Sequence record: KT454806
DNA length: 64,000 nt
Reading direction: 5' to 3' (one strand)
From: Escherichia phage SUSP2
Within the stretch, counting starts at the first letter, position 1; each line of letters starts with the position of its first letter. The notes under the pieces were generated by a model. The model saw nothing but the letters and a program-made list of their open reading frames with translations. It was not told where the DNA came from and made no database searches. Below are positions 58,111-63,578 of the stretch, in pieces. The translations under genes and the position numbers were made by a program.

Positions 58111-58187
58111 CTCCGTTTAGCTCAGTTTGGTAGAGTGCGCCGTTTGGGGCGGTGAGGTCGAAGGTTCAATCCCTTCAACGGAGACCA
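58111..58187 (+). tRNA. tRNA-Pro (anticodon UGG)
   Basis: Hand-folded cloverleaf: acceptor ctccgtt/aacggag, anticodon loop tttgggg, T-arm gaagg-ttcaatc-ccttc, encoded CCA. Confidence 0.75.
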
Positions 58188-58194
58188 AATTAAT

Positions 58195-58272
58195 GTTCCA
58201 GTAGACAAATTGGTAAAGTCACCACACTTTCAATGTGGAGTTTTGAGGGTTCAAGTCCCTTCTGGAACGCCA
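58195..58272 (+). tRNA. tRNA-Glu (UUC)
   Basis: Acceptor gttccag/ctggaac, anticodon loop ctttcaa, CCA. Confidence 0.75.
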
Positions 58273-58355
58273 AATTTGACAGAAGACCAAGTACAGCAAA
58301 TAACTTTACTTTTCGCGCATAGAAAACTTAAAAGTTTGGTCTGGTCATAAAAGTT

Positions 58356-58432
58356 CGCGGGTATAGAGAAAGGGCGTCTCACATGTCTCATTAGCATGGT
58401 ATCGGCAGGTTCGACTCCTGCACCCGCCTCCA
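58356..58432 (+). tRNA. tRNA-like gene, anticodon CAU (Met/Ile2/fMet undetermined)
   Basis: T-arm gcagg-ttcgact-cctgc, anticodon loop ctcatta; 1-72 mismatch and unusual discriminator. Confidence 0.4.
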
Positions 58433-58514
58433 AATTTGCAGAAGACCGTTTACAGCAATCTCAAAAATTTTTATCGGAAAAAATGAAAAGATACGGTCTG
58501 GCAATACTAAACAT

Positions 58515-58591
58515 GGTGAGGAAGCACATAAGGCATGTGCGGTCGGCTGTTAACCGAATGGTATAGGGTTCGAATCCCTAACTCACCGCCA
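58515..58591 (+). tRNA. tRNA-Asn (GUU)
   Basis: Anticodon loop ctgttaa, T-arm taggg-ttcgaat-cccta, CCA. Confidence 0.7.
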
Positions 58592-58651
58592 AGATTTGGG
58601 AGAGAAGCGTAATGCTCACCGATTTGTAAGGTGCAAGTCCTTAGCCTGAAT

Positions 58652-58739
58652 AGAATAAAATGCGTCGTTATCCCGTAGATGGAAGCGGTGGTGACTGTAA
58701 ATCACTTGTCATTATGACTCGGTAGGTTCGACTCCTTCA
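58652..58739 (+). tRNA. tRNA-Tyr (GUA), long variable arm
   Basis: Acceptor gcgtcgt/acggcgc, anticodon loop ctgtaaa, 88 nt. Confidence 0.65.
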
Positions 58740-58745
58740 CGGCGC

Positions 58746-58823
58746 ACCAAATAAAGGTTATGTAGTTTAATCTGGTTAAAATACTCCCCTGTCACGGGAG
58801 ATGATGAGGGTTCGAATCCCTTC
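58746..58823 (+). tRNA. tRNA-Asp (GUC)
   Basis: Anticodon loop ctgtcac, stem ctccc/gggag, CCA. Confidence 0.75.
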
Positions 58824-59261
58824 GTAACCGCCAAATTTGAGAGGGCTTTTTAGCCCCTCCCTTAAAGAGTTCTTACGAGTATTCTTTAAAGGAGCAGAAG
58901 ACCAAATTCAGCAAGCCAACTTAAAAAATTTCAAGCCAATTTAATTTTGAAAAATTTAAAACTTGGTCTGGCTCAACAAATTTACAGAAGACCGTTTACA
59001 GCAAGTATAAAACAATCTATTTCTCTGGTAAAGAAAAGGCGAAGGTTCGATTCCTTCACACGTTACGGCGTGTTGGTGTAATGGTAGCACTTAAGATAAA
59101 ACAACGGTCTGGTAATCTTCTTTGCAGTGACTTATGGAGCTAAATGCCGTCCCATGAGTGCCGATGAATTTCCTTAGCATGATTCTAGATTAGCTTAATA
59201 GGAAATGACTCTACAAACCCTTTAGCAAGGTTTGCGTAGGTTACTGCAAAGATGATTTAAT

Positions 59262-59337
59262 GGGAGTGTAGCAGAATGGTGATGCGGCAGACTTTTAATC
59301 TGACAGGCGACGGGTTCGAATCCCTCCACTCCTACCA
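59262..59337 (+). tRNA. tRNA-Lys (UUU)
   Basis: Acceptor gggagtg/cactcct, anticodon loop cttttaa; weak T-stem. Confidence 0.6.
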
Positions 59338-59343
59338 AATAAT

Positions 59344-59420
59344 GGTTCAGTCGCAGATAAGGTAATGCAAGGGTTTCATAAGCCCTATGAATGTGGGTTC
59401 GAATCCCATCTGAACCTCCA
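59344..59420 (+). tRNA. tRNA-Met-type (CAU)
   Basis: Acceptor ggttcag/ctgaacc, anticodon loop ttcataa. Confidence 0.65.
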
Positions 59421-59425
59421 ATTAT

Positions 59426-59502
59426 GTTGGGAAAGCTCATATGGATGTAGCACTCGGCTGATAACCGAGAGGCAGAGGGTTCGAATCCCTCTCCTAACAC
59501 CA
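59426..59502 (+). tRNA. tRNA-Ile (GAU)
   Basis: Anticodon stem-loop ctcgg-ctgataa-ccgag, CCA. Confidence 0.75.
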
Positions 59503-59517
59503 AATTCAATAAAGTTG

Positions 59518-59546
59518 TTGACATTCAGATGTGACCACTTTATAGT
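59518..59546 (+). promoter_or_regulatory. near-consensus sigma70 promoter inside tRNA island
   Basis: TTGACA, 17 bp, TATAGT. Confidence 0.6.
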
Positions 59547-61554: not shown

Positions 61555-61631
61555 GCAGAATTAGTTCAAATGGATAGAGCAGCAGCCTACGAAGTTGCTT
61601 GTTAGGGGTTCGAATCCCTTATTCTGCACCA
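61555..61631 (+). tRNA. tRNA-Arg (ACG)
   Basis: Acceptor gcagaat/attctgc, anticodon stem-loop gcagc-ctacgaa-gttgc. Confidence 0.7.
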
Positions 61632-61650
61632 ATTTAAAGAGGCTATTTAA

Positions 61651-62208
61651 ATGAGATATTTGAAGTATGCTTCATGGATTTTCCTAGCTTTGCTAGAGCC
61701 ATTTGCAGCAATCTTAGCAGTAATCTTAGCACCCTTTGTGGTTCCATTCTACAGTGAGAGGAAAGGTCACTTACCTTTTGGATTCAGATGGATGGAAACT
61801 TATGATAACCCGATTGACGGTGACAAAGGTCACGTTGAGCGATGGGCTAAGATTCGAAAGATTGGTAAGCTCGGTGTTTATATGCAGAGAGTTGGATGGC
61901 TCTGGAGAAACAAAGCTTATAACTTCTCTTACCATGTATTAGGAAGAGATGTAAAAGATGTTACTAAGTGGAAAGGTAATATCAACGTAAGTTCTAACCC
62001 TGAAGATAATCAGACAGGTTATCTCCTGATGTGGAACAGTAATGCTTGGGGTTTATTCGCTTTTATCCCGTCAATTAAAATCTTTGGTAAACAATTTTAC
62101 TGGAGAATTTATGTTGGTTGGAAACTTAAAAGTGTTGTCCCAGAAGAAAGAGCATTTTCAAGGGAAAGAATTATGTTGGCATTCTTTATTCATCCACTAA
62201 GAAAGTAA
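61651..62208 (+). CDS. membrane protein encoded inside tRNA island
   Basis: 185 aa; AAAGAGG RBS; hydrophobic N-terminus WIFLALLEPFAAILAVILAPFVVPF. Confidence 0.5.
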   Translation: MRYLKYASWIFLALLEPFAAILAVILAPFVVPFYSERKGHLPFGFRWMETYDNPIDGDKGHVERWAKIRKIGKLGVYMQRVGWLWRNKAYNFSYHVLGRDVKDVTKWKGNINVSSNPEDNQTGYLLMWNSNAWGLFAFIPSIKIFGKQFYWRIYVGWKLKSVVPEERAFSRERIMLAFFIHPLRK

Positions 62209-62216
62209 AGATTTAA

Positions 62217-62292
62217 AGGGGATTAGTTTACAAGGTTAAAACCTCGGTCTTTGAAATCGAAGAAGTTGGTTCAATTCCAACATCCCCCGCCA
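62217..62292 (+). tRNA. tRNA-Gln (UUG)
   Basis: Anticodon stem-loop tcggt-ctttgaa-atcga; unpaired 1-72. Confidence 0.6.
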
Positions 62293-62294
62293 AT

Positions 62295-62373
62295 GCTCCA
62301 TTACTCCAATTGGCAGAGAGGCCAGACTTAAAATCTGTGTTATGTATCGGTTCGAATCCGATATGGAGTACCA
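62295..62373 (+). tRNA. tRNA-Leu (UAA), short variable arm
   Basis: Paralog of 61289-61366; anticodon loop cttaaaa; A73. Confidence 0.55.
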
Positions 62374-62380
62374 AATTAAT

Positions 62381-62456
62381 AGCAGTGTAGCATAACTGGC
62401 AATGCTCCAGCCTCTGAAGCTGAAAGATTAAGGTTCAAATCCTTACGCTGCTGCCA
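62381..62456 (+). tRNA. tRNA-Gln (CUG)
   Basis: Anticodon loop ctctgaa, T-arm taagg-ttcaaat-cctta. Confidence 0.6.
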
Positions 62457-62487
62457 CTTCTAAGGGTTCTTACGAGAGTCCTTACAT

Positions 62488-62564
62488 GTGGCCTTATCAT
62501 AAATGGATAATGACCCATGCTGTGAACATGGTCTATACGGGTTCGATTCCCGTAGGTCACCCCA
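62488..62564 (+). tRNA. tRNA-His (GUG)
   Basis: Anticodon stem-loop ccatg-ctgtgaa-catgg, T-arm acggg-ttcgatt-cccgt. Confidence 0.7.
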
Positions 62565-62572
62565 AATTTAAT

Positions 62573-62648
62573 GGGTTAAGTAGCTTATATGGTTAAAGCG
62601 CGTGTCTGAAAAACATGAGAAGAGGGTTCAAATCCCACTAACCCGCCA
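62573..62648 (+). tRNA. tRNA-Phe (GAA)
   Basis: Anticodon loop ctgaaaa; T-arm gaggg-ttcaaat. Confidence 0.6.
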
Positions 62649-62665
62649 ATTTCAAAAGGTGCTTA

Positions 62666-63400
62666 ATGAAAGAGATGACAGAACAAGGTAAAGAGATTTT
62701 TAATCTCCTGAAATCCGGTAACGGGTTTTCTAACCCTCTTATTACTGGTGCAGCAATCCTTGGTGGCACAATTGCCGCTTCTACTTCATTAGTAAGCTCT
62801 ATTAGCTCGGTATCAGACCCTACAGTAAAAGATAAACTTATTGCTGCTGGTTTGACTACAGCCTTGTTAAGTAGCTTCTCAACGAGCCTTGGAAGCACTA
62901 CAACGACAACTAACACTTTGACTCAATACGGGCAGAAGTCTGTAGATGAGTTCTCATCACGTATGCAGGTAGCTAAAGGTTACTCTAACGTTATGGGTGC
63001 AGCAGGAGAACAAGTTGGTTGTACACCGTTTAGTGGAATCATGGGAGTAGCTACAGAGTACGGTCAAAAAGCTATGGATTTGATTAACACCTCCATAGAC
63101 ACTGTGAATGGCGTTCTAAGTGATTTGCAAGATGCAATCAACAAAGGACTAGATACTATATCTTCCTTAGCCTCACAAGCCGTTACAGCGATTAATCAGG
63201 GCATTGCTAAGATTACTGCATATGCTAATGAGGTCACTCAGATGATTGCAGATGAAGCAGCGTTAATTGCTGATTACTTGAAAACGAATATCAATGGTTT
63301 CCTTGCAGGTATCTTACCAGACTGGTTTGATGATGCTTGTAAAACTGGCGTGATTGATTCAATCGCAACTCCAGAAATGAAGGATGCCTTGAACAAATAA
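62666..63400 (+). CDS. Ser/Thr/Ala-rich protein encoded inside tRNA island
   Basis: 244 aa; low-complexity hydrophobic N-terminal half. Confidence 0.5.
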   Translation: MKEMTEQGKEIFNLLKSGNGFSNPLITGAAILGGTIAASTSLVSSISSVSDPTVKDKLIAAGLTTALLSSFSTSLGSTTTTTNTLTQYGQKSVDEFSSRMQVAKGYSNVMGAAGEQVGCTPFSGIMGVATEYGQKAMDLINTSIDTVNGVLSDLQDAINKGLDTISSLASQAVTAINQGIAKITAYANEVTQMIADEAALIADYLKTNINGFLAGILPDWFDDACKTGVIDSIATPEMKDALNK

Positions 63401-63402
63401 TT

Positions 63403-63495
63403 GGAAGATTAACCCTAAAAGGTAAGGGAACAGTTTGCTAAACTGTCAGTAACCGAGAAATCGGCGTACCAGTTCAAGTCTGGTATCTTCCTCCA
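63403..63495 (+). tRNA. tRNA-Ser (GCU), long variable arm
   Basis: Acceptor ggaagat/atcttcc, anticodon stem-loop acagt-ttgctaa-actgt, 93 nt. Confidence 0.7.
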
Positions 63496-63502
63496 ATTTA
63501 AT

Positions 63503-63578
63503 GCGTCGATGACAGAAACGGCTATGTGCCTGTCTGCAAAACAGGATTATGAGGGTTCAACTCCCTTTCGACGCTCCA
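63503..63578 (+). tRNA. tRNA-Cys (GCA)
   Basis: Anticodon stem-loop cctgt-ctgcaaa-acagg. Confidence 0.7.

Follow-up and report, generated by a model that had tools for sequence, protein, structure and literature searches.

The ring-shaped Ro60 protein binds Y RNAs on its outside and the ends of misfolded RNAs in its central hole. Y RNAs are small RNAs encoded beside Ro60; their paired ends carry the binding site for the protein, and at least one Y RNA per bacterial genome mimics a tRNA (PMC4201824). The Ro60 recognition motif reads GNCGAA in bacteria and GGUCCGA in vertebrates (PMC4201824). Among phages, phiLo encodes a Ro60 protein that binds phage-encoded Yrl RNAs and also the host PNPase (PMC12135203). 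In phage Bas63, gp130, a Ro60-like gene located upstream of the tRNA genes, counters the Ppl defense system, and the authors of that study guessed that some of the "tRNAs" might be Y RNAs (PMC11482910). Here, we analyzed a stretch of 64,000 nucleotides (nt) from Escherichia phage SUSP2 (sequence record KT454806), referred to as the window, which contains an island of tRNA genes with a Ro60-like gene directly upstream.

The tRNA island itself is already known, being a routine annotation in hundreds of genomes, and Felixounavirus genomes are reported to carry 17 to 23 tRNAs at the same position (PMC8300805). What a first-pass annotation of the window overlooked is about 2 kb of non-tRNA content, comprising four Y-RNA-like genes, here named R1 to R4, and other conserved structured RNAs, as well as the Ro60-like gene. 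We consider it likely that R1 to R4 are the RNA partners of the Ro60-like protein in a phage Ro60-like/Y-RNA particle, whose expression, processing, binding and function we infer by analogy. R1 to R4 would thus be concrete candidate RNA partners for a phage Ro60-like protein whose probable Bas63 counterpart was recently shown to defeat a bacterial defense system.

A Ro60-like gene precedes the tRNA island

The gene upstream of the island was delimited as follows.

56529..57944, plus strand: Ro60-like gene, 471 amino acids, DUF2828 and DUF7788 with a vWA domain; MIDAS (metal ion-dependent adhesion site) motif DxSxS at D279/S281/S283

As judged from its structural model, the encoded protein is Ro60-like by fold only; sequence methods give no link to TROVE. 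An AlphaFold model built with 36 homologues reached a mean predicted local distance difference test (pLDDT) score of 89, and the top 11 matches in a Foldseek search against the PDB were all Ro60. The predicted fold consists of a TROVE-like ring of HEAT-like repeats and a C-terminal vWA domain with a MIDAS, the residues of which (DxSxS...T...D) are invariant across the family. The protein falls into PHROG 850, described as "RNA-binding protein."

Homologues with 29 to 50% identity were found in 708 phage records, and those of mycobacteriophages (33% identity) are annotated as "Ro-like RNA binding protein." The gene adjoins tRNA genes in very different phages, often with RNA ligase genes (RtcB, Rnl2) nearby; ligase genes are among its neighbors in Aeromonas phage LAh_8 and Pectobacterium phage CBB. 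The Felixounavirus homologues are 88 to 89% identical to the window protein and the description of Bas63 gp130 matches it, so that gp130 is probably its orthologue. The literature was also searched for DUF2828 and for the sequence motif of the RNAs described below, with no relevant result.

Four small RNAs share a bulged terminal helix and a CAGCAA motif

The string GAAGACC-N5-CAGCAA occurs in four mismatch-free copies in the 64 kb, at 58282, 58441, 58897 and 58987 only. These copies mark the following four elements, for which scores against the Rfam family RF01414 (Dictyostelium Class I RNA) are given where a full-length alignment was obtained.

58277..58347, plus strand: R1, UGAC/GUCA outer stem, AGA bulge, AGACCAA/UUGGUCU stem, GUACAGCAA motif; RF01414, 17.0 bits
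58436..58504, plus strand: R2, UUGC/GCAA outer stem, AGACCGU/ACGGUCU stem, UUACAGCAA; RF01414, 26.9 bits
58892..58974, plus strand: R3, GAGC/GCUC outer stem, AGACCAA/UUGGUCU stem, AUUCAGCAA
58982..59115, plus strand: R4, the long form, with the common terminal stem (outer UUAC/GUAA) and UUACAGCAA, followed by an anticodon-arm-like hairpin, a T-arm, a closed acceptor-like hairpin and a D-arm

All four share a common fold. A 4-bp outer stem, which covaries between the copies as listed, is followed by an AGA bulge facing a single G and then by a stem of 7 to 8 bp, AGACCNN/NNGGUCU, the variable positions of which also covary. After this bulged terminal helix comes a single-stranded (U)UACAGCAA, and the 3' end reads CUG. 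The elements are located on the strand of the Ro60-like gene, with R1 starting 333 nt 3' of its stop codon, and they are spaced 4 to 10 nt from tRNA ends within the first 1.2 kb of the operon. Conservation of all four extends across Suspvirus, Felixounavirus and Mooglevirus.

The middle part of R1 to R3 is A/U-rich and has no tRNA-like domain, which makes these three RNAs YrlB-like at most. R4 carries a T-arm (GGUUCGAUUCC), and its domain order, with the T-arm followed by the closed acceptor-like hairpin and the D-arm, is the permuted order of bacterial YrlA. The alignment of R4 to the Rfam YrlA model covers positions 25 to 83 and scores 21.5 bits. Its acceptor-like hairpin shows compensated changes across the three genera (ACACG/CGUGU, ACUCG/CGAGU and ACCCUUC/GAAGGGU). 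It is because of this tRNA-like part that a partial match to the Rfam tRNA model was obtained at 59004-59057 (31.3 bits) and that tRNAscan-SE calls the Felixounavirus copy a 129-nt "tRNA-Thr-GGT."

Many of the small RNAs include a hairpin whose 7-nt loop resembles an anticodon loop and reads CUGCUAA or CUGGUAA (anticodons GCU and GGU); among them are R4 (window positions 59019-59036) and elements of three further loci (L130, 5665-5719; L129, 3823-3886; L127, 5988-6104). The position equivalent to U33 is U, C or G in the R4 copies of Ounavirinae. This hairpin could be an anticodon-arm decoy. A candidate fifth, decayed copy near 61155 (CUGAAGACCGUAACAAAU) was unsupported by a relaxed scan and was dropped.

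Promoters and a proposed path from transcript to particle

Three near-consensus promoter-like sites precede or lie within the island.

57963..57991, plus strand: promoter-like site P1, TTGACA-17-TAATAT (10/12), within a 12-bp hairpin after the Ro60-like gene
58055..58084, plus strand: promoter-like site P2, TTGACA-18-TAAAGT with an upstream TG (10/12)
59518..59546, plus strand: internal promoter-like site P3, TTGACA-17-TATAGT (11/12)

The promoters that had been proposed at 57964 and 59518 were thus recovered, the former at 57963, and the site at 58055 was added to them. P1, P2 and P3 are the top-scoring sites, yet the total of promoter-like sites is not above that of shuffled sequences. P3 is conserved in all relatives aligned. 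The island would read as a multi-promoter tRNA operon, whose transcript is presumably trimmed into individual tRNAs by RNase P of the host and by processing of the 3' ends.

R1 to R4 would be transcribed along with the tRNAs from P1 or P2 and, because they lie 4 to 10 nt from tRNA ends, would be freed by tRNA processing. The Ro60-like protein would then bind their bulged helix and CAGCAA motif, and the tRNA-like part of R4 might recruit tRNA-recognizing enzymes or a nuclease. Such a particle might serve as a gate or a tether for a nuclease or deal with damaged tRNA, and could in this way act in RNA surveillance, RNA repair or counter-defense.

The same RNA type accompanies DUF2828 genes of other phages

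Related elements were sought with an anchored Python scan. A match had to have a 7-bp stem with no more than one G.U pair, a linker of 2 to 4 nt, the CAGCAA motif and, at short spacing from it, the 3' strand. A MAFFT alignment of 31 short elements split the 3' stem strand, and all statistics were therefore derived from the anchored scan rather than from a covariance model. In the curated loci, arrays of one to eight elements were observed beside DUF2828 genes and on the strand of the gene, in phages of Klebsiella (KP13-16), Mycobacterium (Lumos), Listeria (A511), Aeromonas (LAh_8) and Campylobacter (CPX), in phages of Staphylococcus, Bacillus, Synechococcus and Enterococcus and in more distant Ounavirinae-like contigs. 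The density of elements in these loci was 0.45 per kb in the gene flanks versus 0.045 per kb elsewhere; across 2 Mb of viral DNA from unrelated sources, the background rate was 0.042 per kb.

A sample of 75 independent IMG/VR loci, in which the proteins are 38 to 48% identical to that of the window, gave a similar picture. At least one element was found in 57 loci; 90 matches were on the same strand as the gene and 16 on the opposite strand, and 53 of the 90 lay within 500 nt of the gene. The enrichment within 500 nt of DUF2828 genes was ∼17-fold. The scan found zero elements in a related Erwinia phage (Kolesnikvirus) that has ∼35 tRNAs and no DUF2828 gene.

Among 38 nonredundant elements there were 34 distinct stem sequences. 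Several features that the scan does not demand nevertheless recurred, namely, a G after the 3' strand (35/38), an A at the start of the stem (29/38) followed by a G (28/38), UUA as the commonest linker (T in 23/38, T in 30/38 and A in 29/38) and an A-rich run before the 3' strand. For the long forms, eight sequences from five lineages yielded an RNAalifold consensus with terminal stem, T-arm, acceptor hairpin and D-arm, in which 16 of the 23 pairs were compensated. Two of these long forms, those of KP13-16 and Lumos, gave full-length YrlA matches (39.7 and 39.3 bits, respectively), which are located directly after the gene.

In Staphylococcus phage S-CoN_Ph10 (L138, 4471-4724), three CAGCAA elements immediately after the Ro60-like gene are annotated as open reading frames (ORFs) of 30 to 34 codons; these tiny "hypothetical proteins" are probably misannotations. 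Listeria phage A511 has a match to ROOL RNA (L131, 2465-3016; 87.5 bits, slightly below the gathering score of 99.1) between tRNAs and CAGCAA RNAs, upstream of the Ro60-like gene, and an RtcB-type "tRNA splicing ligase" gene is located 1.3 kb downstream. Most of what a loose IMG/VR scan for AGAAGACC-N5-CAGCAA brought up was due to chance, and only three Felix-like contigs proved useful. In the same scan, the exact stem of the window was seen on an unrelated viral contig, IMGVR_UViG_3300005664_000262 (L015, 2297-2347), as AGACCGU-CGA-CAGCAA...ACGGUCU-GGG.

Annotation pipelines miss these RNAs, which are called tiny ORFs or 129-nt "tRNA-Thr." They appear to form an undescribed small-RNA family with a simple signature that travels with DUF2828 in Ounavirinae, Stephanstirmvirinae, Herelleviridae, mycobacteriophages, cyanophages and others.

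The tRNA genes of the island

The tRNA genes are listed below; where nothing else is stated, the call rests on ARAGORN, the Rfam tRNA model at its gathering score and an encoded CCA.

58111..58187, plus strand: tRNA-Pro (UGG)
58195..58272, plus strand: tRNA-Glu (UUC)
58356..58432, plus strand: CAU tRNA, first copy, with a C1.C72 mismatch; Met, fMet or Ile2 (ARAGORN, tRNAscan-SE in CHB7, CCA)
58515..58591, plus strand: tRNA-Asn (GUU)
58662..58749, plus strand: tRNA-Tyr (GUA), class II, T-stem mismatched at one U.U pair; Rfam at 22.8 bits, no ARAGORN call in the window
58756..58833, plus strand: tRNA-Asp (GUC)
59262..59337, plus strand: tRNA-Lys (UUU)
59344..59420, plus strand: CAU tRNA, second copy
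59426..59502, plus strand: tRNA-Ile (GAU)
59779..59855, plus strand: tRNA-Arg (UCU)
60125..60207, plus strand: tRNA-Trp (CCA), noncanonical, with an odd D-arm and C31.A39; no program call
60388..60476, plus strand: tRNA-Ser (UGA) (ARAGORN, tRNAscan-SE in CHB7, CCA)
60716..60793, plus strand: tRNA-Leu (UAG)
60801..60876, plus strand: tRNA-Lys (CUU)
60883..60958, plus strand: tRNA-Ala (UGC)
60965..61039, plus strand: tRNA-Gly (UCC)
61046..61122, plus strand: tRNA-Thr (UGU)
61222..61296, plus strand: tRNA-Val (UAC)
61299..61376, plus strand: tRNA-Leu (CAA)
61555..61631, plus strand: tRNA-Arg (ACG)
62217..62292, plus strand: tRNA-Gln (UUG)
62295..62373, plus strand: tRNA-Leu (UAA)
62381..62456, plus strand: tRNA-Gln (CUG)
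62488..62564, plus strand: tRNA-His (GUG) (ARAGORN, Rfam in E-value mode, CCA)
62573..62648, plus strand: tRNA-Phe (GAA)
63403..63495, plus strand: tRNA-Ser (GCU)
63503..63578, plus strand: tRNA-Cys (GCA)

ARAGORN called 25 tRNA genes, all on the plus strand, and its first and last calls coincide exactly with the limits given for the island in the first-pass annotation, 58111 and 63578. The Rfam model RF00005 matched 22 of these in full length at the gathering score, and tRNA-His in E-value mode brought the total to 23. The remaining two, the CAU tRNA at 58356 and tRNA-Ser (UGA) at 60388, were in the window found by ARAGORN alone and are called by tRNAscan-SE in the near-identical CHB7 record. 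The first-pass annotation named 27 anticodons. ARAGORN's calls account for 25 of these, and the lists differ only on Tyr and Trp, both of which are present. Its total of about 29 tRNA genes holds for these 27 but not for the other two, which are tRNA-like RNAs (X1 and X2, below) rather than tRNAs. Its statement that all tRNAs are on the plus strand with an encoded CCA was borne out for 25 of 25 called genes and for all four extras (Tyr, Trp, X1 and X2). Together, the 25 canonical tRNAs and the noncanonical Tyr and Trp tRNAs cover all 20 amino acids.

tRNA-Tyr (GUA) scored 22.8 bits against the Rfam tRNA model, is annotated by tRNAscan-SE in the CHB7 record (98.9% identical), and its Felixounavirus copy is called by ARAGORN. 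No tRNA program calls the tRNA-Trp gene at 60125-60207. This gene is conserved in the three genera and matches the Sec model with 22.4 bits; its anticodon stem is compensated at every one of the five pairs (AACGG/CCGUU versus GUAAG/CUUAC), with the CUCCAAA loop unchanged.

The C1.C72 mismatch of the first CAU tRNA is initiator-like, but its anticodon stem lacks the three G-C pairs seen in initiators. With regard to the Ile2 option for the CAU tRNAs, AUA is not overused in the phage (ratio, 0.94). Three program matches were set aside. A 750-nt "permuted tmRNA" (transfer-messenger RNA) called by ARAGORN in phage Mordin (L123, 6220-6969), which runs from R4 through tRNA-Ile, and a match to Rfam tmRNA_permuted in the window (59290-59629; 24.9 bits) were judged to be cross-matches to tRNA-like parts, and a weak YrlA match at 62510-62634 is an artifact spanning tRNA-His and tRNA-Phe.

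Other structured RNAs in the island

Three further structured RNAs are interspersed with the tRNA genes.

59114..59257, plus strand: S0, ∼145 nt, with a closing stem of ∼22 bp, between R4 and tRNA-Lys
59863..59982, plus strand: X1, a 120-nt tRNA-like RNA with acceptor stem GGUCAAG/CUUGACU, T-arm, GCCA end and two extra hairpins
60214..60368, plus strand: X2, a tRNA-like RNA of ∼155 nt with acceptor stem ACCCCUU/GAGGGGU, T-arm and GCCA end

S0 has a z-score of -4.67 and four compensatory changes, and in Felixounavirus its interior is replaced while the stem pairing is kept. It is possibly a processing site of the RNase III type. UAB_Phi87 annotates a minus-strand ORF over S0 that is probably spurious.

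X1 and X2 are 120 to 155 nt long and have no normal anticodon arm, and we therefore classify them as tRNA-like RNAs and not as tRNAs. In X1, two hairpins replace the normal D and anticodon arms and show compensated changes between Suspvirus and Mooglevirus; X1 is absent from Felixounavirus. X2 corresponds to a 165-nt insertion (60205-60390). All five relatives in the alignment lack it, and a search of 50,697 phage records gave no match. The tRNA cluster of phage T4 encodes the stable "species 1 and 2" RNAs of ∼120 to 140 nt with a tRNA-like acceptor/CCA end, and X1 and X2 resemble these by description only, that is, in size, in their place among tRNAs and in the acceptor/CCA end.

The stretches 59551-59778 and 59984-60126 are noncoding and conserved across the three genera, with covarying hairpins; no Rfam family matches either of them. 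One such hairpin, at ∼59645-59662 (UGAGG/CCUCA versus CAGGG/CCCUG), lies in the first stretch, which is directly downstream of P3.

Possible roles of the tRNAs

The proposal of codon-usage compensation in the first-pass annotation gained modest support. Codons that pair with the phage anticodons by Watson-Crick rules have a median phage/E. coli usage ratio of 1.23, versus 0.94 for the others (Mann-Whitney P = 0.016; the E. coli codon table is a provisional one, a caveat that counts against the test). The largest ratios were those of AGA (4.0-fold), AAG (3.4-fold), ACA (2.5-fold) and UCA (2.2-fold). The tRNAs would decode A/U-ending codons that the phage uses more than its host, and they may also back up host tRNAs destroyed by defense nucleases.

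That the replacement of host tRNAs cut by anticodon nucleases of the PrrC, PARIS or Retron-Eco7 type, and not codon compensation, is the main role of the tRNAs seems to us possible rather than probable. With one decoder for each box and all 20 amino acids covered, the set comes close to completeness, which is beyond the needs of codon bias alone, and the probable orthologue of the adjacent Ro60-like gene is a counter-defense factor. However, the significant overuse of the cognate codons stands against replacement as the main role, as does tRNA-Lys (UUU), in which no escape mutation is apparent at this level: its anticodon loop, CUUUUAA, is identical to what we take to be the loop of E. coli tRNA-Lys. 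Phage tRNAs do rescue infection from tRNA-cutting systems (work cited in PMC11482910), whereas the tRNAs of the related phage Bas63 proved largely dispensable on four laboratory hosts (PMC11482910). The role against tRNA-cleaving defenses that the first-pass annotation also proposed is plausible.

Genomic setting and relatives

The window represents the Ounavirinae, genus Suspvirus, and has a GC content of 40%. The 5.8-kb region of the island matches 336 phage records, among them Escherichia phages CHB7, phiSUSP1 and mistaenkt with 95 to 97% nucleotide identity and, according to their annotations, identical tRNAs in identical order. We are fairly confident in describing 56.5 to 63.8 kb of this Suspvirus, a phage of the Felix O1 type, as its rightward "RNA arm," which combines a tRNA operon with a module of the Ro60/Y-RNA type. 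Other features of this arm are as follows.

61393..61605, plus strand: 70-amino-acid Cys-rich ORF, PHROG 10765; its last 17 codons overlap the 5' half of tRNA-Arg (ACG)
61651..62208, plus strand: 185-amino-acid membrane-type ORF, DUF7338
62666..63400, plus strand: 244-amino-acid ORF, DUF7217
63739..63764, plus strand: terminator-like hairpin and T-run, 3' of the island

The overlap between the 70-amino-acid ORF and tRNA-Arg (ACG) is also annotated in CHB7, mistaenkt and Mordin; Felixounavirus is without the ORF, and the tRNA there directly follows tRNA-Leu. Between the tRNA genes of close relatives there are HNH homing endonuclease genes (mistaenkt) and a PD-(D/E)XK endonuclease gene (CHB7) (L001, 3369-3797 and 5601-6053; L002, 4969-5310). 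The window has only noncoding DNA at these places, and the island can therefore be called a mobile-endonuclease hot spot. Apart from these insertions, it differs from mistaenkt and CHB7 by small strain differences and X2.

Weighing the alternatives

Several results weigh against R1 to R4 being Y-RNA-like partners of the Ro60-like protein. A Pfam scan of the protein detected only DUF2828 and DUF7788 and no TROVE domain (PF05731), PDB searches by phmmer and with a 36-sequence profile found no Ro60, and an NCBIfam scan gave no match. The GNCGAA and GGUCCGA motifs are absent from R1 to R4. The YrlA scores of R4, KP13-16 and Lumos given above remain below the gathering score of that family (RF02553; 69 bits), and the ten full-length RF01414 matches, with 17 to 30 bits, remain below that of Class I RNA (41.5). 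On their own, R1 to R3 fold no better than shuffled sequences (z-scores from -0.7 to -2.3). The stem pairing of the scanned elements is partly true by construction, since the scan demands a perfect stem, and under its strict rule no element was found in 18 of the 75 IMG/VR loci or in the jumbo phage CBB.

One alternative, which we judge unlikely, is that the region is a tRNA operon only, in which R1 to R4 are spacers or processing signals (guide hairpins for RNase E, RNase III or RNase P) unrelated to the neighboring protein. The short distance of R1 to R4 from tRNA ends, the adjacent S0 as a long duplex of the kind cut by RNase III and the weak thermodynamic z-scores of R1 to R3 are consistent with such a role. 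Arrays without intervening tRNAs, for example, in Aeromonas phage LAh_8 and Staphylococcus phage S-CoN_Ph10, speak against it, however. Moreover, the RNA type tracks the DUF2828 gene and not the tRNAs (57 of 75 loci, mostly within 500 nt), the tRNA-dense Kolesnikvirus island without such a gene has no elements, and neither an invariant single-stranded CAGCAA nor a YrlA-like domain would be expected in a cleavage spacer.

We regard it as improbable that R1 to R4 are cis-acting binding sites used by the Ro60-like protein to control its own transcript or that of the tRNAs, and not free RNAs that act in trans. The elements do lie on the strand of the gene, usually less than 500 nt away, and in the window they are codirectional with it and come just past the hairpin that overlaps P1. 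Across phages, however, they are found either upstream or downstream of the gene and in arrays of up to eight, often with tRNAs or promoters in between; the long forms mimic a free tRNA, and the known partners of Ro60 are free small RNAs (PMC4201824, PMC12135203).

The idea that R1 to R4, X1 and X2 are decayed tRNA pseudogenes without a function of their own can draw on the partial tRNA match of R4, the "tRNA-Thr-GGT" call in Felixounavirus and the acceptor stem, T-arm and CCA retained by X1 and X2, but it is very improbable and for R1 to R4 largely refuted, as R1 to R3 contain no tRNA parts, position 33 of the R4 "anticodon" loop varies, UUACAGCAA and the terminal stem are conserved from mycobacteriophages to phages of Gram-positive bacteria and cyanobacteria, and the compensatory changes in the R4 and X1 hairpins indicate selection on structure.

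Comparison with Class I RNAs and with known Ro60/Y-RNA systems

RF01414 is the only Rfam family that recognizes the short elements; its consensus is GaUcuC-CUUACAGCAA-(variable)-GagAuC-UG. Besides R1 and R2 (E-value of 0.003 in 251 nt for R2), it aligned in full length to each of the eight elements in the array of Aeromonas phage LAh_8, with 18 to 30 bits (best, 29.6). Class I RNAs are abundant and developmentally regulated, and they are reported to bind the RNA recognition motif (RRM) protein Rnp1A/CIBP. DDB_G0281243, described as "function unknown," is one of four proteins that were pulled down with a Class I RNA. DUF2828, according to Pfam, is presumably a family of eukaryotes and viruses. 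Class I RNAs have a covarying terminal stem of free sequence, an 11-nt motif by its 5' strand, an AAG start and a CUGU end (PMC7919456), and they have been reported only from dictyostelids (Kjellin et al. 2021, PMC7919456).

The Class I and phage RNAs are alike in the terminal stem, the variable A/U-rich middle, the (A)AG start, the CUG(U) end and a length of 50 to 70 nt. The single-stranded motif by the 5' strand is CCUUACAGCAA in Class I RNAs and (U)UACAGCAA in the phage elements; R2 and R4 carry UUUACAGCAA, of which CAGCAA was demanded by the scan and the preceding UUA was not. The termini read AGAAG...GGUCUGG in the window copies and AAG...CUGU in the Aeromonas and Listeria phage copies. 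In contrast to Class I RNAs, the phage elements have a linker that is one base shorter, and they are genes of bacterial viruses without the Dictyostelium upstream sequence element (DUSE) promoter.

We tentatively suggest that the CAGCAA RNAs serve as "Y RNAs" cognate to a second Ro60 branch of divergent sequence (DUF2828), forming with it an ancient pair of wide distribution among phages, and that Class I RNAs belong to the same family and work with a protein of the DUF2828 type. DDB_G0281243 is a possible partner of this type. If true, this would offer a specific hypothesis for the 20-year-old question of what Class I RNAs bind and do.

Among phages, the closest counterparts of the locus are the Felix O1-like tRNA clusters of Felixounavirus, Suspvirus and Mooglevirus, which share 88 to 97% nucleotide identity with the window and the gene order DUF5681 gene, DUF2828 gene, tRNAs, DUF7217 gene and terminase, a layout that we also found in the Mooglevirus and Felixounavirus relatives. 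Bas63, likewise a Felix O1-type phage, has in gp130 a protein with a Ro60-like fold encoded directly upstream of the tRNA stretch. The Bas63 study named no Y RNAs, and R1 to R4 are not annotated as tRNAs, apart from an occasional miscall of R4 as tRNA-Thr. The Ro60 of Thermus phage phiLo (PDB 9KOP, 9L5Y; PMC12135203) is a named TROVE-domain protein, and its Yrl1 and Yrl2 RNAs carry the CGAA motif; there, binding and PNPase recruitment have been shown experimentally.

With bacterial Ro60 (Rsr) and its YrlA and YrlB RNAs, the window shares the ring fold with vWA/MIDAS, adjacent small RNA genes and paired RNA ends. YrlA and R4 have the permuted T-arm, closed acceptor stem and D-arm in common, and in YrlA, as in R1 to R4, a purine-rich motif lies on the 5' side of an internal loop. 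The window protein differs in being of the DUF2828 and not the TROVE type, and the motif is UUACAGCAA and not GNCGAA; phages have up to eight RNA copies, and the module of the window is located inside a tRNA operon and not in an rtcBA operon. Because the scores fall short of the family thresholds and the canonical motif is lacking, we interpret the module as a variant of the Ro60/Y-RNA kind rather than as a member of YrlA or Class I.

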